DNA of 64,000 bases from an uncultured Clostridia bacterium (lineage in GTDB: Bacteria; Bacillota; Clostridia; Christensenellales; CAG-314), in NCBI GenBank assembly GCA_947601445.1, contig CANQGD010000001.1:130417-194416 (forward strand), read 5' to 3'. The notes beneath the pieces were generated by a model. The model saw only the letters and a program-made list of their open reading frames with translations, searched no databases and was not told the DNA's origin. The position numbers were made by a program, and so were the translations under genes. This document shows, in pieces, positions 4,309-61,523 of the stretch; the stretch's first letter is position 1, and every line of letters starts with the position of its first letter.

Positions 4309-4432
4309 CGCATACAACAATCTGCCCGTAAATAGTGCAAGATTCATTAAAATTTTAATTTTAAAATTAAATTCAGAGAACAATGTTTTTGCACGGAATT
4401 ATATAACTTGTATTAAAATTATAAATTAAGTT

Positions 4433-4468
4433 AAACGGCTTGACGTCAATCAAGTCGTTTATTTTTAT
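4433..4468 (+). terminator. Rho-independent terminator after recA
   Basis: AAACGGCTTGA / TCAAGTCGTTT stem (one G-U pair), 6-nt loop, followed by ATTTTTAT. Confidence 0.6.
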
Positions 4469-4576
4469 CGATTGTTTGACAAAGTTCAGAAGTAGCAGAC
4501 TTAATTTGAGCATTATTGTTGATAAACGTAATTAGCATTGAATCGCTTGTCAGGCGGTTTGGGGCTTTTTATTTGA

Positions 4577-4753
4577 TTTAACAACACTAATTTATGGAAA
4601 CAAGCAGGGGAAATCACAACAATTGATAAAGTTCAATCGGCTAACGGTTTTGCAGCAGTAGTTTCGGTAGAGATAGAACATTTGAATAAAAAAATAGAAG
4701 TTTACAATTTGAATGTTCTATGTTATCATACTTATGTCATCGGAGAAGGTTAG
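4577..4753 (+). pseudogene. Start-less remnant of a Hint (Hedgehog/intein-like) domain C-terminus from a polymorphic toxin
   Basis: Open frame between TGA (4574-4576) and TAG (4751-4753), with no start codon. It reads FNNTNLWKQAGEITTIDKVQSANGFAAVVSVEIEHLNKKIEVYNLNVLCYHTYVIGEG. This matches the W..A.el..gD.....G....V.s.e....-VYN(F/L).V...HTY.V pattern of pre-toxin Hint modules. Confidence 0.55.
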
Positions 4754-4818
4754 ATTGCAGTACTAAGTTATTTAAAATCATAAAATTCATTCCTATAAAA
4801 TAGGGGAGGAGCTATTTA

Positions 4819-5316
4819 ATGTTTAACATGTACTTAAATGAGCAATTATTCGAAAATTTGCAAGATTTAGGATTAAAAATTGATGAAGTATGCAATGATT
4901 TCTACAAGGAAATTATATGGATAGAAGAAATATATCGTTATCCAACTGCAAAAGAATTGGCAAAAGATGATGAGGACGAAGCGGATGATTTCCGACTGAC
5001 TCCAACCACAAAAATATTAAAAAATACCAAAGTTTATGTAAAGGATAGAAATTGGATACCAAAGGATGACGAATTTCATCACTATTTTAAAACTATTTCT
5101 ACAGGTATGATATTAAATTATTTGCAGGAAAAGTTGAGCGATTATGAGTTTGTAATTAACTTTAAAAATTATGGACAAAATATGCTGTATGCTGAAATCT
5201 CATTTAAGAATGAAACAAAAGTTTATGAAAGTCCGAAAGATCAACTCCCATCGTGTCTATTAATTGACCAATTGTATGATTTCTTGCACTGGTTGTTGGA
5301 AGAAAAAATCGTTTAG
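4819..5316 (+). CDS. Hypothetical protein, candidate immunity protein of a toxin cassette
   Basis: 165 aa ORF with a strong RBS (GGGGAGGAG) 65 nt after the Hint stub. Acidic, with no recognisable motifs. The immunity call rests on position only. Confidence 0.5.
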   Translation: MFNMYLNEQLFENLQDLGLKIDEVCNDFYKEIIWIEEIYRYPTAKELAKDDEDEADDFRLTPTTKILKNTKVYVKDRNWIPKDDEFHHYFKTISTGMILNYLQEKLSDYEFVINFKNYGQNMLYAEISFKNETKVYESPKDQLPSCLLIDQLYDFLHWLLEEKIV

Positions 5317-5580
5317 ATATATAACGCTTGTACCGTTAAAGAAAATGGCGTCTATGAAATTGACTTTGATGATGGTAAAAAATATATAGGTAAAGGTTCG
5401 CATCAAAGGATGCAACAATCTATCAAGAGACTGTCTAGCGAAACTAGAAATCTAGTATCAAAGCAATTTACGCCTTGCTCAAGTGACAAAGCCGCCTTTA
5501 TGCTTGAACATATTAAAATGATGGAAACGGGATTTGGCACGGAAGGTGAATTGCTAAATAAGATTTATAGTCTGGCATGA
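5317..5580 (+). pseudogene. Start-less orphan toxin C-terminal module with GIY-YIG (URI)-nuclease-like motifs
   Basis: Frame continues directly after the stop of the 4819-5316 ORF, with no upstream start. It reads IYNACTVKENGVYEIDFDDGKKYIGKGSHQRMQQSIKR...AFMLEHIKM...LLNKIYSLA*. Motifs are GVY-x9-YIG, then R, then E, then N in the order and spacing of GIY-YIG domains. Confidence 0.4.
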
Positions 5581-5657
5581 AGCTTTTCATGATGTTCTTT
5601 TAAAATAGTTAGTCCTGCTTGTAGGAATCTATACAAGCAAGACTAGGGAGTGAAATT

Positions 5658-6565
5658 ATGAAAATTGTTATAAACGAGAAAAAAAATATCGTGATTTTTC
5701 TACAAGATACGATTTAAATTACTGGTATCAAACACCGGAACGTTTTTTAGAAATCCAATCTTGGGAACTAGAGTCAGACATTAAAGCAGTAAAAAAAATG
5801 TTATTAGACAACGAAATTTATTATTTGTCTATTAACACACAAGGGAACAATTATAGAGTAGATCTTGCGAACCTGGAAGAACTCTTTTTTTTGGAGTATC
5901 TCGGGCTACCATGTGGAAGTTTCATTAATGTTAGTACATTAGAAGGTTTAACCAAGTTAAAATCACTGTTTTTATTTAATGACAACGATGGAGAAGCTAT
6001 TGATTTATCTAAACTGCGGTCTCTTAAAAGATTATATATACAAAATTCATTGGGTAAGATTGAAGGGATTGAGTCTCTTGTTGGACTCCATACCTTATCT
6101 TTGCAAAAGTTAAAAGCAACAGATTTACAATCTTTATCAAGTCTAACGAATTTGGAATCGTTAGAATTAGTTCAATCTACAATTGAATCATTGGATGGAA
6201 TAAGTTTGTTGAAGAAACTAAAGTGTTTGACAATGTTTTATTGTAGCAAATTGAGTAGTTTGAAGGGCGTAGAGTATTTATCAAAACTTGAATACTTAAA
6301 ATTGGACACATGCAAGGCTTTAAGCGATTATCATTTTCTTGCCGATGCACAATTATTGAAATATTTGTTCATTGGTAGTTGCGGAGCTGTAAATGATTTA
6401 AAGTGGCTGCATAATTTAAAGAGAATGAATTATATAGGACTAATTGACACGGATGTAACAGATGGGGATGTTTCTTGTTTATTAAGTGTTCCGGATCACA
6501 GATACACAAATAAAAAGCATTTTAATTACTACCAAAATAAATACGGTGTAGATATTAAACGATAA
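5658..6565 (+). pseudogene. Leucine-rich-repeat protein (immunity-like), frameshifted at an A8 tract (or phase-variable)
   Basis: The 5798-6565 ORF has about 9 LRR units (L..L..L.L....I..I..L). The same frame is open back to 5654 but has no start codon. ATG at 5658 has a good RBS (AGGGAG) but is one frame off. Adding one A to A8 (5679-5686) fuses the two frames. Confidence 0.6.
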
Positions 6566-6774
6566 TGTTTTTTTAACAATTGTTTGGGTACTTGCTGGTA
6601 AATCACAAAGAAGCGGGTACCGGAATGAGAATGCTACAAGCAAAAGTGGACTTTATGAATACTTTACAAAATGTCACTGCAATAAAAAAATTTATTTAAT
6701 TAATTGAGGTGTAAGATGAGCTATTATTCAAGTGTTAGTTATATATATATCGTATTGAGAAAGAATTCAATATT

Positions 6775-7206
6775 ATGAAAGATTATTGTCCTGAGATGGC
6801 CAATTTTAATAAACATCAAATATTGAATATGTTTAATAATATTAAGACTTATTTTGGTGCTGTTCAATTTGATACTATATGTGCTTTGTGTAGGTACATT
6901 GATGGAAAAGGATATTTCAAGACTAAGAATAACACTTATTTCAAGAGAAAAATTGATACAGGCATTCAAAAGATATTTTTATCAAATGATGATTATCAGT
7001 GGAATACTTATACAGTATCTTTTTCTGCCCTAAAGTATCCGAATATTGATGTAATGTTGACCGATAGCGGTTTAACGTTTAATCTGGATCATGAAAATGA
7101 ATTGTCAAAAGCAGATATTGAAGAATTGCGCAAATTAGCAATAAATTGTCTGTCCGATACAAGAATTATTAAAATAGTGGACCAAATAAATACTCCAAGA
7201 AAATAA
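6775..7206 (+). CDS. Hypothetical protein (immunity-like); true start possibly ATG 6716, separated by a (TA)5 frameshift
   Basis: 143 aa ORF. The upstream ATG at 6716 with GAGGTG RBS opens a 20-codon frame ending in ATGA overlap with 6775. Deleting one TA from (TA)5 at 6740-6749 joins the two frames. Confidence 0.5.
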   Translation: MKDYCPEMANFNKHQILNMFNNIKTYFGAVQFDTICALCRYIDGKGYFKTKNNTYFKRKIDTGIQKIFLSNDDYQWNTYTVSFSALKYPNIDVMLTDSGLTFNLDHENELSKADIEELRKLAINCLSDTRIIKIVDQINTPRK

Positions 7207-7215
7207 AACATTTAT

Positions 7216-7251
7216 GGGATTCTGCTTAATGCGGAATCCCTTATAATTTTT
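7216..7251 (+). terminator. Rho-independent terminator
   Basis: GGGATTC...GAATCCC hairpin followed by TTATAATTTTT. Confidence 0.5.
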
Positions 7252-7304
7252 GAAGTTAATTAATGAAACATATATTTTATTAAAATTTTAAATAGTGCTT
7301 TATT

Positions 7305-7585: not shown

Positions 7586-9196
7586 ATGAATACATTGATT
7601 ACATTCTTCCTTGCCGACAGTACTATTCCTTCTTGGATTTGGATTCTTTTACCGGTAATAGCCGTTGCATTTGCCGCAATCGGTGTAGTGGTGGGAATCT
7701 GCGTATATAGAAGATATAGAAACCGCAAAATAGGCTCCACCCAAGCGCAAGCCGATTCCATTATGGAATTTGCGCGAGAGGAAGCCAAATCGTTGAAAAA
7801 TGATGCCATAAAAGAGGCAAGAGAAGAAAGTCAAAGACAAAAGAATGAAGCGGAACGTCAGATAAGAGAACGCAGCAACGAACTTGCGAAACAAGAAAAT
7901 CGAATGAGTCAAAAAGAAGAAGCTCTCGACAAAAAAGAGGAGATGCTTCTCAAAAAATTGGATCAAATCGACGTTCAACAAAAACAACTTATCTCTCAGC
8001 AGGGAGAACTTAACAAACGCGCTCAGGAACTTACCAAATCCGAGGATAAAATTCAGCAGGAGTTGGAACGCGTTGCAGGCTTGACGCGCGATGAGGCAAA
8101 GCAGATATTGGTGGACGGAATGGTTTCCGAGGCGCGCAAAGACGCTGCCGGTCTTGTTCGCAAAATTGAAACAGAAGCCAAACAAAGCGGCGATCAAAAA
8201 GCTCGTGAAATTATCGCAACGGCAATTCAGCGTTGTGCAAGCGATCAAGTCAGCGAAATGACTGTCACAACGGTACCTCTTCCCAATGATGAAATGAAGG
8301 GGCGTCTAATCGGGCGCGAAGGAAGAAACATTCGCGCATTGGAAAACGCAACGGGCGTGGAATTGATTATCGATGATACGCCGGAAGTCGTTATCCTATC
8401 GGGATTTGATCCCGTTCGCCGTCAAATTGCGCGTATTACCATTGAAAAACTTGTTTCCGACGGTCGCATACACCCCGCTCGTATAGAGGAAATGGTGGAG
8501 AAGGTCAAACGCGACATGGAAATTACGATTAAGGATGAAGGTGAAGCCGCATCGTTTGACACAGGCGTTTTTGGATTGCATCCGGAACTTATCAAATTGC
8601 TTGGTCGGCTTAAATTTCGCACTTCTTACGGACAGAATGTGTTGCGTCACTCCATAGAGGTAAGTTACATAGCGGGTATTATTGCTTCCGAACTCGGGCT
8701 CGATGTTGCTTTGGCAAAAAGAGGCGCATTGTTGCATGATATAGGTAAAGCTGTGGATCAGGAAGTTGAGGGCACTCACATGCAAATAGGCGCCGATCTT
8801 GCCAAAAAGTATAAAGAAAGCAAAGAGGTTGTCAATTGCATTGCGTCTCATCACGGAGACGTGGAACCGATAACGGTAGAGGCGGTTATCGTTGCCGCTG
8901 CCGACGCGATAAGTGGAGCGCGCCCGGGTGCTCGCAGAGAATCTCTTGAAAATTATGTAAAACGTCTTGAAAAGTTGGAAGAAATTGCCAATTCCTTCAA
9001 AGGCGTTCAAAAGTCTTATGCGGTACAGGCAGGACGTGAAATTCGTATTATTGTCAAACCGGAAGAAGTAAATGACGAAACGACCGTATTGTTGGCAAAT
9101 GACATTGCCCGTCGCATTGAAAGCGAGCTTGAATATCCGGGACAAATCAAAGTCAATGTTATTCGCGAAACGCGCAGCATTGATTATGCAAAATAA
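7586..9196 (+). CDS. rny: Ribonuclease Y
   Basis: 536 aa. N-terminal TM helix, long coiled-coil region, KH domain ([15 protein letters not shown]), HD domain (LLHDIGKA...HH). GGAGGA RBS. Confidence 0.95.
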
Positions 9197-9903: not shown

Positions 9904-9978
9904 AGGGGAGTGGCTCAACGGTAGAGCAGCGGTCTCCAAAACCGCCGGTTGCGTGTTCGAATCGCGTCTCCCCTGCCA
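9904..9978 (+). tRNA. tRNA-Trp (anticodon CCA)
   Basis: Cloverleaf by eye. Acceptor AGGGGAG/CTCCCCT, D-arm GCTC-AACGGTA-GAGC, anticodon stem GCGGT/ACCGC with loop CTCCAAA, TTCGAAT T-loop, encoded 3' CCA. Confidence 0.9.
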
Positions 9979-13054: not shown

Positions 13055-14311
13055 TCAAAATTTGATATATTTGGCAAAAATCGAAATATATTTTTTGGCT
13101 ATTATCACGTTGATGTCGGCGCCGTATTCGTCATATTTTACATTTTTAAGCTGAGCATTGTATTTGTTTAAATCGGAAAGCAATTTAGCGCTTTCGCCCA
13201 GCGCTACATGCAAATTTACAATGGCATATTTTTCCATTACAAATTCCTGTATTTTCATCATCAGCAGATCGATATTTTTACCGGTCAGCGCAGATATAAA
13301 CACGGACGGCGTATTTTCAAATACGACGTCGCCCAATGATTCAGTTTTAATTATTTTGTCGCTTTTGTTGTAAATGCGCACAATTGGTGCCGTCGCATTT
13401 AATTGTGCAAGGGTATTCTCGGTAACGTCGATATGTTTTGCCACATTTTCGTCGGATACATCGCACACATTCAAAATCAAGTCGGCGTTTCGTGCTTCTT
13501 CCAATGTGGATTTGAAAGCGTTTAAGAGCGAATGAGGCAAATCCTTAATAAATCCTACGGTATCGCATAACAAAATTTCCACTCCGTTCGGTGTTTTCAG
13601 ACGTCTGACGGTGGTGTCCAACGTGGCAAACAGTTTGTTGTCGGCATACACATCCGATTGCGTGAGTCTGTTAAACAACGTGGATTTGCCCGCATTGGTA
13701 TATCCGACAAGCGCAACCGTAAACAACCCGTTTTCTTCGCGTTGCTTGCGGGTTATCATACGATGTTTTTCTATTTCTTTCAGTTCTGTTCTAAGCCGAT
13801 ATATCCGTTCGCGCGCGGTGCGTTTGTTTGTTTCCAACTGAGTTTCACCCGGACCGCGAGTTCCTATTCCCGCGCCTTGACGCGAAAATCCCTTTTCCGG
13901 CTTGGTAGCCAAATTGTAGTTAAGCTGCGCCAACTCAACCTGTTTTTTCCCTTCTGCGGAAGTGGCGCGCAACGCAAATATATCCAAAATCAAATCGATC
14001 TTGTCAATTACATCGCAATCCAATTCTTTCGCGAGAGTTACGCGCTGAGTTGCGTTTAGCGGACAGGAAAAAATTACGACGTCGATATTGCAGTCGATTG
14101 TTTCAAGTGAATGTTTCAGTTCTTGAAGTTTGCCTTTACCGATAACGGTGTCCGGCTCTGCCGAATTTCGTTTTTGCGAGCATTGCAACTTTATTTCACC
14201 TTTTGCCGTGCGTATCAATTCGGTCAATTCATACAAATCTTGCTCAATGTCGCTATTCGGAAGTTCCAAATAGACCAATGCAACGTTTTCGATATTTATA
14301 TTCATAATCAA
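13055..14311 (-). CDS. hflX: GTPase HflX
   Basis: 418 aa. HflX N-domain (GTRGPGETQLETNKR), G1 GYTNAGKST, G2/G3 ATLDTT/DTVGF, NKSD. Confidence 0.9.
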   Translation of the reverse strand: MIMNINIENVALVYLELPNSDIEQDLYELTELIRTAKGEIKLQCSQKRNSAEPDTVIGKGKLQELKHSLETIDCNIDVVIFSCPLNATQRVTLAKELDCDVIDKIDLILDIFALRATSAEGKKQVELAQLNYNLATKPEKGFSRQGAGIGTRGPGETQLETNKRTARERIYRLRTELKEIEKHRMITRKQREENGLFTVALVGYTNAGKSTLFNRLTQSDVYADNKLFATLDTTVRRLKTPNGVEILLCDTVGFIKDLPHSLLNAFKSTLEEARNADLILNVCDVSDENVAKHIDVTENTLAQLNATAPIVRIYNKSDKIIKTESLGDVVFENTPSVFISALTGKNIDLLMMKIQEFVMEKYAIVNLHVALGESAKLLSDLNKYNAQLKNVKYDEYGADINVIIAKKYISIFAKYIKF

Positions 14312-15372
14312 TCTTTTTTATCTGTCGGCGCTCCCCTCAAACTTACTTTGGTGGAGGCGTTGCGGCGAATATCTTCCGTTATTGCCGCATAATGGCGTTT
14401 GGTTGTATTTACGTCCTTGTGCCCCAAAACATCCGCCACAACATATATATCCCCCGTATTTCGATAAAGTTGCGTGCCGAAAGTGGAGCGGAGTTTGTGT
14501 GGGGTTATATGTTTCAGCGGTGTGGCTACCAAGCTGTATTTTTTTACGATGTTTTCCACGGCGCGCGTGGTTATGCGTCGTTTTTGCAAGGATAAAAACA
14601 ATGCAGGTTCGTTTTTTACGGTTGAATCCGCCGCACGCATAGAGTAGTAGTCGTAGAGATAGCCGGCGATTTCTTCTGAAAAATAAAGTATCACGCGAGC
14701 GCCGCCTTTACGCGTTACAACAAAGCTCAAATCATCGAAATTTACGTCATCCATATCTATTCCAACCAATTCGCTGACACGTATTCCCGTTCCCAACAGC
14801 AGGCTGACTATGGCAAGATCGCGCACGCGCGTGTTTTCCTGATACCTTTGTTGCCTCTCGGTCAGTCCCATGCCGGTATCCACAACATCCATCATCGTTT
14901 CTATTTCTTCTCCATCCAAACGAATTATTTCTTTTTCATGCAATTTGGGAGTATCTACGGAAGCGGTGGGATTGTATCGAATAAGTTGTTTCTTTTCGAA
15001 ATATTTTACCATAGAGCGTATTGCGGCAAGTTTGCGACTTTTTCCTCTGGCTCCGTTTTTTACAATGGTGCCGTTTTTGCGATATATTTCCACATAACTC
15101 AAATACGCCTCGATTTCGAAAGGCGAAAGGGACTCAATATCCGCTGGAGTAATATCTTTGGTAGATTTATCTTTGAAACGCGAGATTTTCGACGCAAGAT
15201 AATTGAAAAAGGTACGTATATCGTATGCGTAATTCAATCGTGTGAGCGGAGTGGTATCAGAGGAGATTCCGACAAAATATTCTCGGCAAAAATCGGGTAA
15301 ATCTTCATCCAATATTTTGTTCAATTTTTCCATGTTTTCCGCATCTCTGTTGTTGAAATATGTTTTGCTCAT
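14308..15372 (-). CDS. Tyrosine recombinase, XerC/XerD family
   Basis: Catalytic residues GTGIRVSEL (R), HKLRSTFGT (HxxR), LGHKDVNTTKRHYA (H..Y), plus an N-terminal SAM-like core-binding domain. Start set at ATG 15372 (GAGGA RBS) rather than the ORF-track 15612. Stop overlaps the hflX start (ATGA). Confidence 0.85.
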   Translation of the reverse strand: MSKTYFNNRDAENMEKLNKILDEDLPDFCREYFVGISSDTTPLTRLNYAYDIRTFFNYLASKISRFKDKSTKDITPADIESLSPFEIEAYLSYVEIYRKNGTIVKNGARGKSRKLAAIRSMVKYFEKKQLIRYNPTASVDTPKLHEKEIIRLDGEEIETMMDVVDTGMGLTERQQRYQENTRVRDLAIVSLLLGTGIRVSELVGIDMDDVNFDDLSFVVTRKGGARVILYFSEEIAGYLYDYYSMRAADSTVKNEPALFLSLQKRRITTRAVENIVKKYSLVATPLKHITPHKLRSTFGTQLYRNTGDIYVVADVLGHKDVNTTKRHYAAITEDIRRNASTKVSLRGAPTDKKD

Positions 15373-15770
15373 TATTATCCTCGCAAAATTCAAAATACAT
15401 TTTTGACAAATTTGATAGTGCAGCGTTTGTTTACATTTTATATTAGTGTAAAATCTTTGCTTATTTGCCGGGGCAAATCCGATGTTACATCGGTATGTCT
15501 TAATTATACAAACGTTTAAATCAATTCCATTATACCCCAAATGTATTCGTAAAGCAAATATTTTACGAATAATATTGTCGTCAAAATATAAAATATTGCA
15601 CAAGCGGTGCAATAATTGCTTTCGGATTGACTACGGTATTATTGCGCGGGAAAAATCTTATTGTCGTTCGATCAAAAATAAATATTCCCTCATAAACATT
15701 TATTTTCTGCATAAATTTTATTGAATTATTCTGCAAAACAGTATTTTAGAGAATACTATTTTTGACATAA

Positions 15771-15863
15771 CAGTATAAAACGACAAAGTTCAACATAAAA
15801 CGGTGTGCATTAAAAAGTTTCAAAAAGGTTTACAATATAAATATTTTATGTTATCATACATAA
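15771..15863 (+). pseudogene. Second start-less remnant of the Hint C-terminal junction
   Basis: Frame between TAA 15768-15770 and TAA 15861-15863 ends ...SFKKVYNINILCYHT*. Nucleotides 15828-15860 are near-identical to 4703-4735 (GTTTACAAT..AAT.TT.TATGTTATCATAC). Confidence 0.5.
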
Positions 15864-15973
15864 GTAATGGAGCCACTCCGCGCTTGTCATCTGAATTAAA
15901 TCTGCGGAAAAAAAAATTCAACCAACTCAACATTCTGTAAATAAAACTATTACAATCACTACGTGAGAGATAT

Positions 15974-16357
15974 ATGATAGAGTTTAATGGCACATTGTCG
16001 TCCAAGTGCGTTCATTTTTATATTAAAAAGGATATTTTAAAATCCTTAATTATATTCTCATTGCCGACATTGCCATTTATAATTTCTATGATAGTTTTGT
16101 CTATTTTAAGGGCAGAGTTGTTTTGGGGTGTATTTGCAGGCTTAATTCTTGTTATAGCCGTGAGTATGGCGATTATTGAGGGTACAATATTTCTGAAAAA
16201 GAAATTACCTACTCAGATAACAATTGTCGACGGAAGAATTGACAAGGTAAGTATATTGGAGCCCAAAAACAATCCAATCAGTGAGATTGAAACAGTGGTT
16301 GACTACGGTGAGTGGTATCAAATCCATTTCAATATCGGATTAGAAATAATTATGTAA
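15974..16357 (+). CDS. Hypothetical 2-TM membrane protein, probably 3'-truncated by a frameshift
   Basis: 127 aa ORF with two hydrophobic helices. An alternative frame reads on as ..YVICQKDLIAKGTLEEFEKLLGDKIVCSKK* to 16443, suggesting a disrupted longer gene. Confidence 0.4.
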   Translation: MIEFNGTLSSKCVHFYIKKDILKSLIIFSLPTLPFIISMIVLSILRAELFWGVFAGLILVIAVSMAIIEGTIFLKKKLPTQITIVDGRIDKVSILEPKNNPISEIETVVDYGEWYQIHFNIGLEIIM

Positions 16358-16511
16358 TTTGTCAAAAAGATCTTATTGCGAAAGGAACTCTTGAAGAATT
16401 TGAAAAGCTGCTTGGAGACAAAATAGTCTGTTCAAAAAAATAACAATTATATGATTTTTTACACATTGACGAAAGAATAATAGTGTGGCAAATCAGTTTA
16501 TGTGAGAAAAT

Positions 16512-17194
16512 ATGAAATTTTATCGAATTGATGATTCGCATATGTTTTATAATCGTAAGTATGCATATCTTAGTGTAAATTCAACAAACAAAATACCAAA
16601 TGAATATCAAGGCCCTACGGAAGAATATCTTACATTTAGGTGTCCCTATTGTGGCTACGAGAGATATAATATATTTTATCCGGAAAAGTTTATTGCTGTA
16701 TTTAATAAAGACAGTGTGGGAGATATTTCTGTTGGTGTTGTAAACTTCCAACTCGCCCGTATCTGAAAAATTTTTGAAAATGATTGAAAAATATCAATTT
16801 AAAGGTATTGAAGAAATTAGATAGTATAAATACATGGAAACCACGCGACATAAATGTTGAAGGATCTTACTTTGAAACGCGAGTTCATTTTGAACCTTTG
16901 CGATGGAGACATGTGGATAAAGAGAATGAATGCTTGATAGTAGTACATAATCGAACATGTGGTTGCTCGAAATGTTTAGGAAATAGAGACTTTTTAAAAA
17001 TTCCTAAAGATGCGAAGCTTTACCTCGATGGTTTAAACGAGGTTGAGTATGATATCTTTTCGACGATTGATAATCCCGGACATATTTTTGTGTCGGAAAG
17101 ATTTGCGGAAGCTTGCAAAACGGAAAAAATAACCAATATTCTAGATCGATTGGTCGAGGTGTTCGATTACACGGATTTAATGCAAACAAGTTAA
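16512..17194 (+). pseudogene. Decayed gene for a two-Cys-pair (CPYC..CSKC) protein, split over three frames
   Basis: The frame of 16512 ends at 16766. The next frame reads TSNSPVSEKFLKMIEKYQFKGIEEIR* (16744-16824). The third frame carries the 16784-17194 ORF. Both halves contain a (I/F)VSE(K/R)F motif. Confidence 0.45.
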
Positions 17195-17405: not shown

Positions 17406-17441
17406 TATCTATTCGCAAAAGGCAACTTTTGCGAATAGATA
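17406..17441. repeat. Perfect 16-bp inverted repeat with GCAA loop
   Basis: TATCTATTCGCAAAAG-GCAA-CTTTTGCGAATAGATA, read directly from the sequence. Confidence 0.8.
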
Positions 17442-17531
17442 GCGGTTAAAACGGGTTTTTTAGAGCAATTAAACGTTTTTTACTAGTTTCAGACTTATCA
17501 AAAATCAGCCTAAATCAAAACAAATTTATAA

Positions 17532-38403: not shown

Positions 38404-39417
38404 CTATTTACCGAATTGTTTGAGAAAACGCAAATCGTTTTCGTAAAAAAGACGGATGTCGGGTATACCGTACTTTATCATTGCCACACGCTCTACGCCT
38501 ATTCCGAAAGCAAAGCCGCTGTATTTGCCGCTGTCTATGCCGCAGTTTTCCAATACAAACGGATTTACCATACCTGCGCCCAATACTTCGATCCAGCCGG
38601 TTTCTTTACAAAGCGAACAACCTTTTCCGCCACAGTTGCTGCACGTTAAATCAACTTCTACGCTCGGTTCGGTAAACGGAAAGTATGAGGGACGAAAGCG
38701 AACTTTTGTTTGCGGTCCGAACAGATGTGCCGCAATGTATTCAAGCGTCCCTTTTAAGTCACAAAGCGTAACGTTTTTGTCTACAACCAAGCCTTCGATT
38801 TGATTAAATACAGGCGAGTGAGAAGCGTCGCTGTCCGAACGGTAAACTTTTCCCGGACAGACTATTTTCAACGGCGGTTTCTTCCGTTCCATTACTCGCG
38901 CCTGCATCGCAGACGTTTGGGTCCGCAGCAAAATATTGTCAGTGATATAAAAAGTATCTTGCATATCGCGTGCAGGATGATCATAGGGAATGTTTAACGC
39001 CTGAAAATTATAGTAGTCGGTTTCGATTTCCGGACCGGACAACACCTCAAACCCCATCGCAATCATCAGATCGCAAATTTGATTTTCAACCAGCGTTATT
39101 GGATGCAATGCTCCGCGGTGTGAACACGACGTCAGACTCACATCCACTCTTTCTTCCCGCAAACGACGTTCAAGCTCTGCCGCAAAAAGTTCCTCACCTT
39201 TTGAAGAAAACCTATTTTCCATTTGCTTGCGCAGTTCGTTTACTTTTGATCCGAATATCGGACGTTCTTCTGCGGGCAAATCTTTGATGCTTTTAAGTAA
39301 CGACGTAAGCGCTCCCGATTTTCCGAGATATTTCGATTTCAGCTCTTGCAATTCATTTGCATTTTTGCAAGCGGCTATTTCAACATCGAAAGTTGATTTG
39401 ATTTGTTCGATTGTCAT
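38404..39417 (-). CDS. pheS: Phenylalanine--tRNA ligase alpha subunit
   Basis: 337 aa. Class II motifs (HPARDMQDTFY, FRPSYFPFTEPS, GFAFGIGVERVAM). Confidence 0.95.
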   Translation of the reverse strand: MTIEQIKSTFDVEIAACKNANELQELKSKYLGKSGALTSLLKSIKDLPAEERPIFGSKVNELRKQMENRFSSKGEELFAAELERRLREERVDVSLTSCSHRGALHPITLVENQICDLMIAMGFEVLSGPEIETDYYNFQALNIPYDHPARDMQDTFYITDNILLRTQTSAMQARVMERKKPPLKIVCPGKVYRSDSDASHSPVFNQIEGLVVDKNVTLCDLKGTLEYIAAHLFGPQTKVRFRPSYFPFTEPSVEVDLTCSNCGGKGCSLCKETGWIEVLGAGMVNPFVLENCGIDSGKYSGFAFGIGVERVAMIKYGIPDIRLFYENDLRFLKQFGK

Positions 39418-39428
39418 AATTTTCTCCT

Positions 39429-39665
39429 AAAAAAACCCCAAACTGCCATTGCAGTTTAGGGCGATAAATTAACCGCGGTACCACCTAAATTCAAAAGGTT
39501 AAAGCCTTTCCTCTGTGTTTTGTAACGGAAACAGACCGCAAACGACTACTTTTTTCACCGTTCGAACTCGGAAGTGAATATCTTTTTGCGCATAGACGGG
39601 GCTTACACCATCCCCCGTTCGCTGAATCTAAGTTTATCGCAAACTCTTATGCTTCGTCTTTGTTT
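39429..39665 (-). promoter_or_regulatory. T-box riboswitch leader of pheST
   Basis: Minus strand carries the T-box AATTTAGGTGGTACCGCG (39474-39491). A terminator follows: CCCTAAACTGC-AATG-GCAGTTTGGGG + T7 (39429-39461). Stem I-like elements are GCGATAA, AGCGAA and GGTGTAA. UUC triplets occur in the expected specifier region (for example AUUCAC at about 39575-39580). Confidence 0.85.
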
Positions 39666-39671
39666 TTAATC

Positions 39672-57776: not shown

Positions 57777-60700
57777 CTAACTCACAAGCTTTTTAACATA
57801 GCTCTTAAACATACTTTTCCGCCGAGAATTCTCTTTCCACAAAAGATTATATATATGCATTTTAATTTCGTAATCAGTCAATAATTCATCAAATTGACCA
57901 TTACACAAATACCTTTGTATGCTATTACTATCTTCCAATGAATCAATACGTTCGATTTTAAGAATATAATTTTTCCTTTGCTCCATATCTTTACATTGTT
58001 CCATAAATGCTTTTAGTAATTCAATGCGCTGCCCCCAAGTATTGTAAATAAGTAATTGCTGCAGGGACAAACGTTCGAACTTTCGAGCAATGTACACCGC
58101 CTCTAAGAACTGCTGACAATTTGACATATAGTCAAACATTTGGTCTACGGTAACATAAACTAATATATATTCATCAATATCTATCGTTGGATCAAACGAA
58201 AATTTATTTTCATATAATGTGCGTCCAACAATATACTGCCAATATTGGTGCCTATTGCGTAATTCAATCGTTATTTGGGGCGGCATGGCTCCACAATAAT
58301 CGTTATCTATGATAAGATCAATTAATTTATTGCTCCCAATATTTAATTGGTCTAATAAAGCGATAAACTTCTTAATATATTGGAGACAAGCAGTTCTATC
58401 AGTTGTATTTGCAATTTTTTTAATTATCTTTTCCTCGATCAAAGTAGGCATATCTGATGTAATATCCGCAAATTGAATGAGTTCATCAAATGAAGTAAAT
58501 TGACAAGTATCTTCATATGATTGTGCAATTTCTTCCTTTTGAGCCGATTTTAATACATGGTAATCGACTTTTTTAAACGGAATTTTCTTAAACAGCTCTT
58601 TCGTATTTTGAGAAGTGTTTTCAAACAAAAATTTTGCCAACAAATATGCATCTGTTGCACTTCGGATCAAAAACTGAAAAATTTCACCTGCTTGTGATGG
58701 GCTCTGAATCAATCGTGTTATTAAACCGAGATCCAGGCAATCCTCTAACGTTATTATTCTTGCTTCCTCTTCAGTTAATATAGCATACTGCGCATCATAC
58801 AAGAATTTATAAGCCCGTCTTATTTCAATCGATTGTTGAATTAGACCAATTCTATATTTAGTAAACAATGATTTGTGTCGACTGAACAACTCATTCATCA
58901 TTTTACTGTCAAATATACTTACATCATATATACGCGTTTCAAAATTATTTAACGTGATGCAATATTGGAGAAAAGTACTATAATATTTCTGTTCATAAAG
59001 ACTATTGAGTATATTATCATTTATGTTTAAATACCTTTCATAACCTTTTAGGCATTCGCAATACTCCCTACTGATCGGCTCGTCAAGAGAATTTAGATAA
59101 TTTTCTATTTCCTCATAAATTTCACTTCGGTTTTTTGATATAAACTTGAAAATTGTATCGTCAACAATTTTATTCAAGGACATCAAAGAAAGTACACCTC
59201 GCAACATTTCATCGGTCGGGGCCACAACGGCCGTATGACGTTTAATCATATCGACTAATTTAACTTTTTGCATCTCAGTCAACTCGGTTTTTGCCTTGTC
59301 AGCCAAAGCAACCAACAAAGAATTTGTACATTTACTTGGCTCAAGCAAATCAAATATTATATTCACATCACTTAAAGCTAATACTTCTTCGCTACTAAGG
59401 CAAGGAACGTTGCTATATATAAACATATTCTTAAACAACAGAATATCATTGCCAAATTTTTGTGTCAATTCAAACCGACATTGAGTGAAATATTCATTAA
59501 AATTTGTGGTCTTTTTATACAACTCCTCGGAATATTTTTTTAGTAGGTCACACTTACTTGAAAATGCGTAGCTGTAAACTCTAAGTAATGTTTCAACAAC
59601 GCTTTCGGTATTTTCTTTACTCCAAGGATAATTAACAACCATCGTATTAATTATTTGATCGGGATATTTTCTATAACAATATTCTAAAAGGCGTTCATCT
59701 TGTAAAATTACAACAGGAAAAGTCTTTTTAAGTTGCATTAGCTGGTTCATGCAGGCATCGGCAACTTTACATTCACCATCTTCAGAGAAAGACTGCTCTA
59801 TAATGTTAATAAATTCATTTTCTTCACAACTATTTCCAAGCAATAATACATCTTCTAATTTTCGCTCGCCTACATTCTTGATGTAACTACCATTCGGATA
59901 ACTGAAAAAATACTGTTTGAAATTATCGTCTATTATTCTATCGATAATCATACCACTGATTTCTTGCACAAAATCATCCGCTAATTCGAATTCACCAGTG
60001 AATACTTCTTTAATGTACTTAACAAGTTTTCCTATCTTTTCTTCACGTCCGGACGTAGATTCAATTCTCAACAAATTGCCATTATCTACTATTTGCTCAA
60101 ACTTCTTATCATTATTTACGAGCTTGTAATAATTTTGTTTATACTCGCTTTTAAGATATGCAACAGCACAGCATGTTATCATACTGGGGTTTCCCTGCTG
60201 ATTTTTATACTGTCTTGAACAAATGGTCTTATATAAAACGATAGCATCATTGAGACGATGTTTTAAATCACGAATTGTCAACTTACGACCTTGAATAAGA
60301 TATGAAAATTGTCCATATATAGAATCAGGTATGTTTTTATCTTGTTCGCCTACGGTAAACATTTTTCGTATCTCTTGCTCTTTCTCTTTGAGCAATTCTT
60401 GGAGTATTTTTGAAAAATCATCAATATGCACTGCTTTTAAGTCAAGCATATAATCAAAAAATTTGCTGTAATTTTCGCTTTTACCTGCATTGTCACCATT
60501 AGTTTGAGCAGTATTACTGCGTTTATCAATGTCAGGTCTAATTGCTACGATAAAGTGGATTTTTTTATTATCACATGCATTGGAAAGTCTATAAAGTACT
60601 TTTATAAAATTATCTATAAGATTCTCCTTCTCGGCTTTGTCCATTTCTATTCTATCTAAGTCTTCAATCAAAATTATTCTATTTTTACTTTTATTTTTGC

Positions 60701-61397
60701 AAATTGTATCCACTATTTCTTGATAAATCGAAAATATATCGCTACTATCTAGTTTTCTATGTCCCTCACTTTTCCATGTGGAAAATGCAACGTTATATTT
60801 TTTTAGACCGATAACCAAAAATATAATTGACATAGCATAAAATAACGGATATATATCTATCTTTAATAAAAATTGCCATCCATTCCAAATAGTTTCTAAA
60901 TACGGGATATCCACTGTTGTCATATGGAAAATCAATCCAATGACAAAAGATAACAAGGCTAACGATAAAAGCCCCCAGATCTTTTTAGAACTGAAAGTTA
61001 TGGATAGCAAGCCACTATTACCGCTAAGTCTTTTATTTACGTATTTTACTAAGTCTCTGTCTTCACTGTTTTTCGCAAGTTGAAATAAAAACGACTTTTC
61101 TAACCGTAATTCTTGAGATTCTACATCCTCATTGTCTTGTTGTCGCAACCCATCCCACATATTAATTTTAATGGTTTTATCGTACTTATCAGTGTTGGCG
61201 GTCAACATACCTACCATGCTTGATTTTCCATAGCCATAATCGCCAATTAACCCAATCATTTGTGCGCCCGAGTCTATAGCATCGTCCAACGCATCCCTTT
61301 GAGCCTGAAAACCAATGTGATCTTGATTTTCTTCATTGATCTCATGATTAACATACGAATAGCTACTCTTCTGACCATTCTTTTGTTTTTTTACCAT
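57777..61397 (-). CDS. KAP-family P-loop NTPase with two TM helices inserted in the NTPase domain and a ~800-aa uncharacterised C-terminal region
   Basis: Walker A GLIGDYGYGKSS. Two hydrophobic helices (LLSLALLSFVIGLIF; IYPLFYAMSIIFLVIGL) sit before Walker B RIILIEDLDRIE. FIVAIRPD and TIRDLKHRLND follow. Start set at ATG 61397 (GGAGGA RBS); the ORF-track GTG 61445 is the alternative. Confidence 0.8.
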   Translation of the reverse strand: MVKKQKNGQKSSYSYVNHEINEENQDHIGFQAQRDALDDAIDSGAQMIGLIGDYGYGKSSMVGMLTANTDKYDKTIKINMWDGLRQQDNEDVESQELRLEKSFLFQLAKNSEDRDLVKYVNKRLSGNSGLLSITFSSKKIWGLLSLALLSFVIGLIFHMTTVDIPYLETIWNGWQFLLKIDIYPLFYAMSIIFLVIGLKKYNVAFSTWKSEGHRKLDSSDIFSIYQEIVDTICKNKSKNRIILIEDLDRIEMDKAEKENLIDNFIKVLYRLSNACDNKKIHFIVAIRPDIDKRSNTAQTNGDNAGKSENYSKFFDYMLDLKAVHIDDFSKILQELLKEKEQEIRKMFTVGEQDKNIPDSIYGQFSYLIQGRKLTIRDLKHRLNDAIVLYKTICSRQYKNQQGNPSMITCCAVAYLKSEYKQNYYKLVNNDKKFEQIVDNGNLLRIESTSGREEKIGKLVKYIKEVFTGEFELADDFVQEISGMIIDRIIDDNFKQYFFSYPNGSYIKNVGERKLEDVLLLGNSCEENEFINIIEQSFSEDGECKVADACMNQLMQLKKTFPVVILQDERLLEYCYRKYPDQIINTMVVNYPWSKENTESVVETLLRVYSYAFSSKCDLLKKYSEELYKKTTNFNEYFTQCRFELTQKFGNDILLFKNMFIYSNVPCLSSEEVLALSDVNIIFDLLEPSKCTNSLLVALADKAKTELTEMQKVKLVDMIKRHTAVVAPTDEMLRGVLSLMSLNKIVDDTIFKFISKNRSEIYEEIENYLNSLDEPISREYCECLKGYERYLNINDNILNSLYEQKYYSTFLQYCITLNNFETRIYDVSIFDSKMMNELFSRHKSLFTKYRIGLIQQSIEIRRAYKFLYDAQYAILTEEEARIITLEDCLDLGLITRLIQSPSQAGEIFQFLIRSATDAYLLAKFLFENTSQNTKELFKKIPFKKVDYHVLKSAQKEEIAQSYEDTCQFTSFDELIQFADITSDMPTLIEEKIIKKIANTTDRTACLQYIKKFIALLDQLNIGSNKLIDLIIDNDYCGAMPPQITIELRNRHQYWQYIVGRTLYENKFSFDPTIDIDEYILVYVTVDQMFDYMSNCQQFLEAVYIARKFERLSLQQLLIYNTWGQRIELLKAFMEQCKDMEQRKNYILKIERIDSLEDSNSIQRYLCNGQFDELLTDYEIKMHIYNLLWKENSRRKSMFKSYVKKLVS

Positions 61398-61523
61398 TCT
61401 ATCCTCCGTACAATAATTGTTGAAACTGTTTTTTTTAGAATTCACATCTCAATTATTTTATTGATATTGCAAATCCACTTAGAATTGCCAGACTCCAACG
61501 CATTGAATAATTGCAAAACGTTG

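Follow-up and report, generated by a model that had tools for sequence, protein, structure and literature searches.

Orphan toxin/immunity modules are known from Rhs and CDI systems (Poole et al. 2011, PMC3150448; Koskiniemi et al. 2014, PMC3967940), and in Salmonella the exchange of a main Rhs gene with an orphan has been documented across 522 bp of homology at 95 % identity (PMC3967940). Orphan immunity genes grouped in low-GC arrays that also contain pseudogenised remnants have been described from gut Bacteroidales as AID and rAID-1 systems (Ross et al. 2019, 10.1101/471110). An rAID-1 system is defined by a 5′ XerD-like recombinase gene and two or more co-directional, low-GC genes downstream of it (10.1101/471110); the recombinase is required to be at least 44 % identical to BF9343_RS08045.

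The stretch of DNA analysed here (the window, 64 000 nt) comes from an uncultured lineage of Clostridia whose closest RecA proteins, 93 % identical, are from MAGs. Two low-GC islets in this window each contain one copy of a 41–46 nt repeat (copy 1 in islet 1 and copy 2 in islet 2). Most probably, both copies are homologous scars of the PT-HINT domain of an RHS toxin, and they mark disarmed toxin/immunity cassettes of foreign origin. Like orphan Rhs/CDI modules, the islets contain start-less, 5′-truncated fragments that keep part of the pre-toxin region, and they share with these modules a variable tip, an intact immunity gene, cassettes in tandem, and the persistence of immunity genes beside pseudogenised toxin pieces. 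A putative cognate immunity gene lies directly downstream, to judge from adjacency conserved in relatives. Unlike orphan Rhs/CDI modules, the conserved region is PT-HINT rather than the Rhs core/PxxxxDPxGL or the VENN motif, and no tip follows the conserved fragment at either copy of the repeat. No full-length toxin of the same family lies upstream within the 64 kb, and the cassettes fill gaps between housekeeping genes, the upstream neighbours of the relics being recA (copy 1) and an Xer-like recombinase gene (copy 2). The homology within the window (41–170 nt at ~80 %) is also too short and too diverged for the documented route of recombination. Resemblance to AID and rAID-1 systems extends to the orphan immunity arrays, the pseudogenised remnants, the low GC content, the presence of the same cassettes in different contexts in co-resident gut bacteria and the position of islet 2 beside an Xer-family gene. 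The differences lie in the Gram-positive Clostridia host, in toxins of the RHS/PT-HINT type rather than T6SS effectors, and in the very small size of the arrays in the window (two to three genes). Relics of this kind are a known and fairly ordinary genomic scar of polymorphic toxin systems.

Copy 1 of the repeat occupies positions 4700–4740 and copy 2 positions 15828–15868 of the window. An initial annotation had reported a match at about 28 of 33 positions between 4703–4735 and 15828–15860. The match is present and the location of copy 2 was correct, whereas copy 1 had been placed 3 nt off (the actual core is 4700–4732). Within this core 28 of 33 nt are identical (counted by eye), and the repeat continues without gaps to 34 of 41 nt (83 %), with 13 nt as the longest exact run common to both copies. 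The peptides and the start-less frame that had been described also agreed with our translations: the frame of copy 1 lacks an ATG and ends in ...EVYNLNVLCYHTYVIGEG before its stop codon, copy 2 reads KVYNINILCYHT and then stops, and the −1 frame after copy 2 continues as SNGATPRLSSELNLRKKKFNQLNIL to a stop at 15940, with an A9 run visible just before 15920. Both regions have a GC content of ~31 %, a composition in which a low-complexity coincidence between AT-rich sequences could be envisaged. However, a degenerate 32-mer made from both copies matched just these two sites in 64 kb and gave no match in 100 dinucleotide-preserving shuffles. A DNA profile (nhmmer) built from five Hint loci, all in other genomes, likewise found exactly two sites in the window, 4587–4747 (E 6.5e-29) and 15825–15870 (E 6.3e-5), and the same core lies inside bona fide PT-HINT domains of three other loci (L001, L003 and L034). 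Chance is refuted as an explanation of the match and retains practically no probability.

PT-HINT (Pfam PF07591) is reportedly the pre-toxin Hint domain of polymorphic toxins (Zhang et al. 2012, Biology Direct). Autoproteolysis of this domain requires both an N-terminal block with the Cys nucleophile and a C-terminal VHN|C block. The relic that contains copy 1 (4580–4750, + strand, repeat core at 4700–4740) comprises 57 codons, is truncated at both ends, has no start codon and ends in ...VYNLNVLCYHTYVIGEG followed by a stop; the ATG-less frame reads NNTNLWKQAGEITTIDKVQSANGFAAVVSVEIEHLNKKIEVYNLNVLCYHTYVIGEG. Its alignment covers the C-terminal half of the domain (profile positions 75–123 of 137, E 3e-4) and scores 21.4 bits, below the gathering score of 27.7 bits, which is passed by the homologues L001 (43.8 bits), L034 (71.7 bits) and P0017 (77.3 bits). 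Because the score is below the threshold while those of the homologues are above it, the window sequences are classed as PT-HINT fragments and not as members of the family. Copy 1 is 77 % identical in amino acids and 80 % in nucleotides to the L001 fragment, and 79 % identical in nucleotides to the complete Hint domain of the L034 RHS toxin. The 57-aa relic had no matches in a word-indexed protein search. The nucleophile block (CF[VI][AG]GT...) and the VHN|C block are both present in L034, L003 and P0017, and neither is found in either window copy, copy 1 stopping at ...YVIGEG and copy 2 at ...CYHT. To judge from their sequences, both copies are relics and not functional autoproteolytic domains. 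The term Hint junction, which had been used for the repeat, is apt in so far as a pre-toxin Hint relic is present, but the homology stops after ...CYHTYVIG, some 8–10 codons before the actual Hint/toxin boundary (HN|C). The dN/dS ratio of the Hint relic is 0.10 at a dS of 1.13, indicating that the divergence occurred while the sequence was still coding.

The relic of copy 2 is a 46 nt Hint core (KVYNINILCYHT and a stop codon; 15825–15870, + strand) with 84 % identity to L001 and 82 % to L034, and is too short for scoring with the PT-HINT protein profile. Its assignment to Hint therefore depends on a match of limited length (E 6e-5 in the window), and this core is the only demonstrable Hint remnant of islet 2. 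Homology upstream of the core, where the peptides DKVQ and LQNSILEN seemed collinear, was considered and rejected, being not significant in shuffle and segment controls: the upstream-only alignment to copy 1 was no better than those of 266 of 1000 shuffles and of 48 of 490 other window segments. One marginal match to L001 (14 of 15 nt) occurs upstream, and nhmmer limits the homology to 15825–15870. No homologue was detected for the −1 frame peptide after copy 2, and no toxin-tip homology was found 3′ of the copy.

A scan of one genome per species identified two relatives. One (L001) is a Clostridia MAG with a fragment that passes the PT-HINT cut-off (E 4e-11, positions 38–136), and the other (L002) is an Anaeroplasmataceae MAG in which a Hint relic with an internal stop codon is followed by an ORF for an AHH-type nuclease. 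A metagenome scan added three informative loci (L003, L004 and L005). L003 has an intact Hint domain with a glycine-rich region before it, and a Hint-core relic opens an orphan module downstream of its intact toxin–immunity pair; L004 and L005 have near-identical Hint DNA but unlike tips beyond the HN motif. When 1.84 billion representative proteins were searched exhaustively with HMMER, only 25 matches were obtained, most of which were short ORFs starting at varied points within the Hint domain, the pattern expected for orphan modules. A split intein or fixed split point, which had been suggested by the start of both L001 and L002 near profile position 38, was rejected because the database relatives start at many Hint positions, some with internal stop codons.

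The architecture of the parent toxin is evident from relatives with the same core, in which the full PT-HINT domain lies between the RHS repeats and the tip. There are two full-length examples. P0017 (962 aa) combines YD/RHS repeats and an Rhs-associated core (E 3e-20) with a complete PT-HINT, and the metagenome contig L034 encodes a toxin of 2379 aa with RHS_repeat (112 bits) and a complete PT-HINT domain. The Hint domain of L034 contains ...KVYNLNVLCYHTYVIGNNQVVVHNAC, followed by a tip of 86 residues; the toxin gene ends at 9164, and a gene of the same cluster as window ORF165 lies 25 nt 3′ of it. Parent genes of this type consist of RHS repeats, a glycine-zipper region, PT-HINT and a variable toxin tip, followed by an immunity gene. 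Two blocks of the window match L034: 4595–4743 corresponds to L034 8715–8863 (79 % identity), and 4761–5317 corresponds to L034 9122–9678, which covers the end of the toxin and the immunity gene (93 % identity, blastn). This shows that the first cassette of islet 1 is an L034-type 3′ end, in which 17 nt (4744–4760) stand in place of about 258 nt that comprise the last Hint strand and most of the tip. A possible but very short microhomology (ATYGGWAA-like) is seen at this deletion junction.

Islet 1 lies between recA and rny. These genes are separated by 3277 nt in the window and by 360–480 nt in relatives with RecA proteins 91–93 % identical, and the direct adjacency of recA and rny in these relatives identifies islet 1 as an insertion. 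The GC content is 30.6 % in islet 1 and 31.7 % in islet 2 compared with 43–46 % in the flanking genes, and the same contrast is seen at the L001 islet. A repeat search of the whole window found no repeats flanking islet 1, and no mobility genes were found for the islet.

Three disarmed cassettes make up islet 1, which spans positions 4580 to 7263 approximately. In cassette 1, the relic of copy 1 is followed by a stub of the toxin tip (4761–4805, + strand) that represents the last ~14 codons of an L034-type tip (...TKLFKIIKFIPIK and a stop codon; 93 % identity by blastn, with junction alignment), and then by ORF165 (4819–5316, + strand), an intact putative immunity gene. The ORF165 cluster contains 18 sequences at 90 % identity, one of its members being the gene that follows the L034 toxin. 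ORF165 itself is identical in two metagenome contigs (L010 and L011) and has no match in Pfam, NCBIfam or a PDB sequence search. The TAG of ORF165 abuts the start-less tip of cassette 2, in frame and with no spacer (5311–5331). In a metagenome variant (P0280), CAG (Gln) replaces this stop codon and the frame reads through into the tip, while the 165-aa length of 11 of the 15 listed cluster members suggests that the stop codon is kept. The tight packing could be the effect of deletions or reflect a former fusion.

Cassette 2 starts with a toxin tip lacking a start codon (5317–5580, + strand), in which IYNAC is followed by a GIY-YIG-like domain (GVYEIDFDDGKKYIGKG...). By analogy with VHNxC, IYNAC is possibly a relic of the Hint C-terminus. 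This is the only near-complete tip, and it keeps just five Hint-like codons. The tip of L004 aligns to window 5347–5535 (tblastn, 37.5 % over 64 aa, E 4e-12) and has a weak match to the Pfam family SegE_GIY-YIG (E 0.07). The putative immunity partner of cassette 2 is a leucine-rich repeat (LRR) protein of 255 aa (5798–6565, + strand; Pfam LRR_4, E 7e-9). The gene after the L004 toxin resembles this gene (tblastn, E 5e-5 over 200 aa), and L001 5031–5709 is 96.5 % identical to it in nucleotides. An LRR variant in relatives (P0284, 302 aa) has an N-terminal extension of 47 aa that is absent from the window protein. The sequence of this extension is present at 5640–5800, with the start (MKIVINEKK) in a different frame; a frameshift has therefore probably cost the window LRR gene its original N-terminus.

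Cassette 3 consists of a toxin 3′ relic (6585–6700, + strand), corresponding to the last ~31–39 codons of an L001-type tip (blastn and tblastn), and of ORF143 (6775–7206, + strand), an intact putative immunity gene whose homologue directly follows the Hint and toxin ORF of L001. Window 6585–7263 and L001 4354–5032 are 91.8 % identical (blastn), and the L001 tip matches the window at 77 % over 31 aa (tblastn, E 1e-10). ORF143 has a dN/dS ratio of 0.18 against L001 and is under purifying selection. No curated family in Pfam or NCBIfam matched ORF143, and neither ORF165 nor the L001 tip had a meaningful match among PDB sequences. The 90 % cluster of ORF143 has 14 members, which are found on contigs with other contexts. 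In a third context (L026–L033), the last 27 codons of the toxin relic precede an ORF143-type gene that stands alone, and the ORF143 cassette with its toxin 3′ relic is found at 92 % nucleotide identity in at least three genomic contexts. The segments of islet 1 are permuted relative to L001, and their identity differs between the Hint relic (80 %), the ORF143 block (92 %) and the LRR block (96.5 %), which points to a mosaic history. The pairing of toxins with immunity genes is based on adjacency outside the window, where an ORF165-cluster gene follows the toxin of L034, an ORF143 homologue that of L001 and an LRR-like gene that of L004.

The surroundings of the orphan ORF143-like gene were of two kinds in L026–L031. 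In one of them, the region 3′ of the gene contains HTH, SLFN-like helicase and KilA-N genes; in the other, genes with weak REP_ORF2-G2P and faint Zot Pfam matches hint at a filamentous-phage-like element. This suggests that these may be mobile-element neighbourhoods, although the degenerate core pattern had no match among a collection of viral contigs that was searched as a check for phage carriage.

Islet 2 is located between a conserved Xer-like recombinase gene (14308–15375, − strand) and a gene of the methionine gamma-lyase family, and its genes are on the + strand. ORF127 (15974–16357), together with its shifted 3′ end (15974–16443), is a frameshifted copy of a 156-aa protein with two TM segments; two such proteins (P0303 and P0304) are near-identical to ORF127 over the first ~122 residues and then follow the other frame of the window. 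ORF127 is a possible immunity protein, with no similarity to known immunity families and no match to a curated family in Pfam or NCBIfam. The adjacent ORF84 and ORF136 (16512–17194, + strand) are in different frames and each have a CxxC(x)G motif. Their weak family matches, all below cut-off, are to Imm11 (E 0.008–0.016; 15–16 bits for ORF136 alone or fused to ORF84, against a PF07791 cut-off of 22.1) and to the SitI6 double-CXXCG family TIGR02264 (E 0.004; 16.4 bits for ORF136 alone or fused, against a cut-off of 100). These two ORFs are possibly one split Imm11/SitI6-like immunity gene. Exact look-up of RecA and ORF136 found no record. The suggestion that decayed immunity genes follow copy 2 is borne out for the decay, which is evident in the frameshift of ORF127 and the split frames of ORF84 and ORF136, while their role in immunity is only suggested. 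A distant homologue of ORF127 (25 % identity, E 2e-6) was observed in a relative, as a 137-aa two-TM protein encoded with a 380-aa multi-TM protein on a low-GC insert (33.6 %) between RNase H and PadR genes (L014 13878–15692, equivalent to L022 18522–20336). The insert is absent from four other relatives (L017–L020).

The position of islet 2, which directly abuts the 5′ end of the recombinase gene, raises the question of whether the islet is an integron-like or rAID-1-like array that was built by this tyrosine recombinase, with the Hint core as a cassette boundary. The gap between the recombinase and methionine gamma-lyase genes varies among relatives in length and content (2.3 kb in the window, 1.65 kb with HTH genes in L022 and 3.9 kb in L023) and contains a conserved palindrome, as such an array might, and the islet has the low GC content (31.7 %) of rAID-1 genes. 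However, the recombinase gene is a conserved core gene that lies beside hflX in all relatives examined, its NCBIfam matches are to generic Xer and below cut-off, and it scores 55 bits against a cut-off of 265 bits for integron integrases. In addition, the islet 2 genes lie upstream of its 5′ end and diverge from it, whereas rAID-1 genes are co-directional and downstream of the recombinase gene (10.1101/471110). The Hint core pair aside, no integron-like intergenic repeats were found over the whole window, and islet 1 has no recombinase gene. An array built by the recombinase was rejected on the orientation of the genes, the type of recombinase and the missing repeats, and is very improbable.

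The palindrome in this gap (17410–17445) is perfect, with the form TCTATTCGCAAAAG-N4-CTTTTGCGAATAGA. It was also found in four relatives (L022 12450–12490, L023 13717–13753, L024 and L025) and is kept where the flanking enzyme is only 77 % identical and the surrounding DNA is different. Possible roles are those of an operator, a terminator or a site of recombination.

The initial annotation had proposed that both islets derive from, or can recombine with, the same toxin gene family. Derivation is supported by the Hint profile and the homologues, which place remains of one family, with RHS repeats and PT-HINT, in both islets. Swapping of tips at the conserved pre-toxin junction, which had been cited as established for such toxins, is seen among the relatives: the near-identical Hint DNA of L004 and L005 gives way to different tips after the HN motif, and L003 shows a main toxin, an immunity gene and a Hint-core orphan in the classic order. 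Together with the exchange between main Rhs genes and orphans in Salmonella (PMC3967940), these loci would agree with a junction that is still a live substrate for recombination, at which the islets and a parent toxin elsewhere exchange tips. For the window itself, recombination of the islets is not upheld. The tract common to the two copies amounts to 41 nt at 83 %, with at most 13 nt exact, as against the 522 bp at 95 % of the documented case (PMC3967940). No usable tip that could be donated follows either copy, the near-complete tip of cassette 2 keeps just five Hint-like codons, and a tblastn search of the 64 kb with a full-length relative found neither a parent gene nor any RHS or Hint sequence besides the relics. 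The copies are also direct repeats with rny, lexA, hflX and xer between them, and core genes would be lost if the two recombined. Finally, three metagenome contigs of the same species are 99.7–100 % identical throughout islet 1, with no variants. Live recombination at the junction is accordingly unlikely, and the repeat pair is not supported as an active link between the islets, while the descent of both copies from a single toxin family has good support.

Taking the two copies as scars of such a toxin, each would represent the 5′ end of a low-GC foreign cassette that lodged in a gap between core genes. Disarming would have involved loss of the toxin trunk and either deletion of the tips or loss of their start codons, with putative immunity genes that are still intact in islet 1 but decaying in islet 2. 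As orphan immunity genes, those of islet 1 likely act at present against RHS toxins of neighbouring gut Clostridia; this protective role is our inference, as are the sequence in which the deletions occurred and the way the cassettes were transferred. Should the immunity genes be active, the islets would shape which RHS-armed neighbours a strain tolerates, and the near-identical cassettes in different MAGs of an accession series that includes a rabbit-gut ('Lapin') MAG would record recent exchange of defence genes. A repeat below the size of any ORF track was still traceable to one toxin family, and repeats as short as this can flag orphan-immunity islets in uncultured gut Clostridia. The value is mainly one of annotation, in that such regions can be labelled as toxin remnants and immunity genes rather than as hypothetical ORFs.

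A possible explanation for the retention of this particular piece of the Hint domain, which would complement its origin as a toxin scar, is that the core also serves as a promoter of the SigA type, with an extended −10 element. In both copies the core reads TTTACA - 17 nt - TGnTATCAT. In an intact toxin gene, a promoter at this position would drive the tip and the immunity gene, and after loss of the toxin the core would be the minimal piece that selection would keep 5′ of the immunity genes. Both copies were called promoter-like in a consensus scan (4701–4729 and 15829–15857, each with 10 of 12 matches), and a TG-extended −10 element occurs at no other site in either islet. However, the 17 promoter-like matches in islet 1 represent no enrichment over the 20.4 expected from shuffles. 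Two terminator-like hairpins (4432–4461 and 4538–4562) separate recA from copy 1, which implies that ORF165 needs its own promoter, and the core lies ~90 nt upstream of the ORF165 ATG. The limits of the homology are also in keeping with a promoter: the −35 hexamer is the point at which the Hint homology sets in, both in copy 2 and in the L003 orphan, the flanks 5′ of it being unrelated, and in copy 2 the homology stops ~10 nt past the −10 element. In the LCYHT-subgroup sequences that retain an unbroken motif (L001, L003, L034 and the two window copies), the hexamers are spared by synonymous differences, which lie in the spacer and 3′ of the −10 element; the exception of L002, with TTTAGA as its −35 hexamer, is due to its in-frame stop codon. 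Tyr is encoded by TAC wherever that codon is kept, compared with 36 % TAC in the pooled background. The codon argument is nevertheless weak, as the compared sequences are related to each other, and in low-GC genomes the VYN...CYH motif nearly forces these hexamers. We regard a promoter function as a tentative addition to the scar interpretation. A dual-use core, in which the segment that encodes the VYNLNVLCYH strand is also a same-strand promoter and a retained piece of ~45 nt gives rise to a spreading, self-expressing immunity module, is somewhat doubtful on the present sequences. If true, such modules would spread between co-resident gut Clostridia and lodge in intergenic gaps, including that beside recA, as a Gram-positive counterpart to the acquired interbacterial defence islands of Bacteroidales.

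Other features of the window were also recorded. A 1222-aa ORF (57777–61445, − strand) has only weak matches to KAP-family P-loop/AAA proteins (E about 3e-3) and might encode a defence-type NTPase. A T-box leader (39454–39669, − strand) lies upstream of an ORF (38404–39417) that precedes the gene for the Phe-tRNA synthetase beta chain (104 bits), and a tRNA gene (9904–9975, + strand) lies between RNase H-like and PadR-like genes; both the leader and the tRNA gene are ordinary features.
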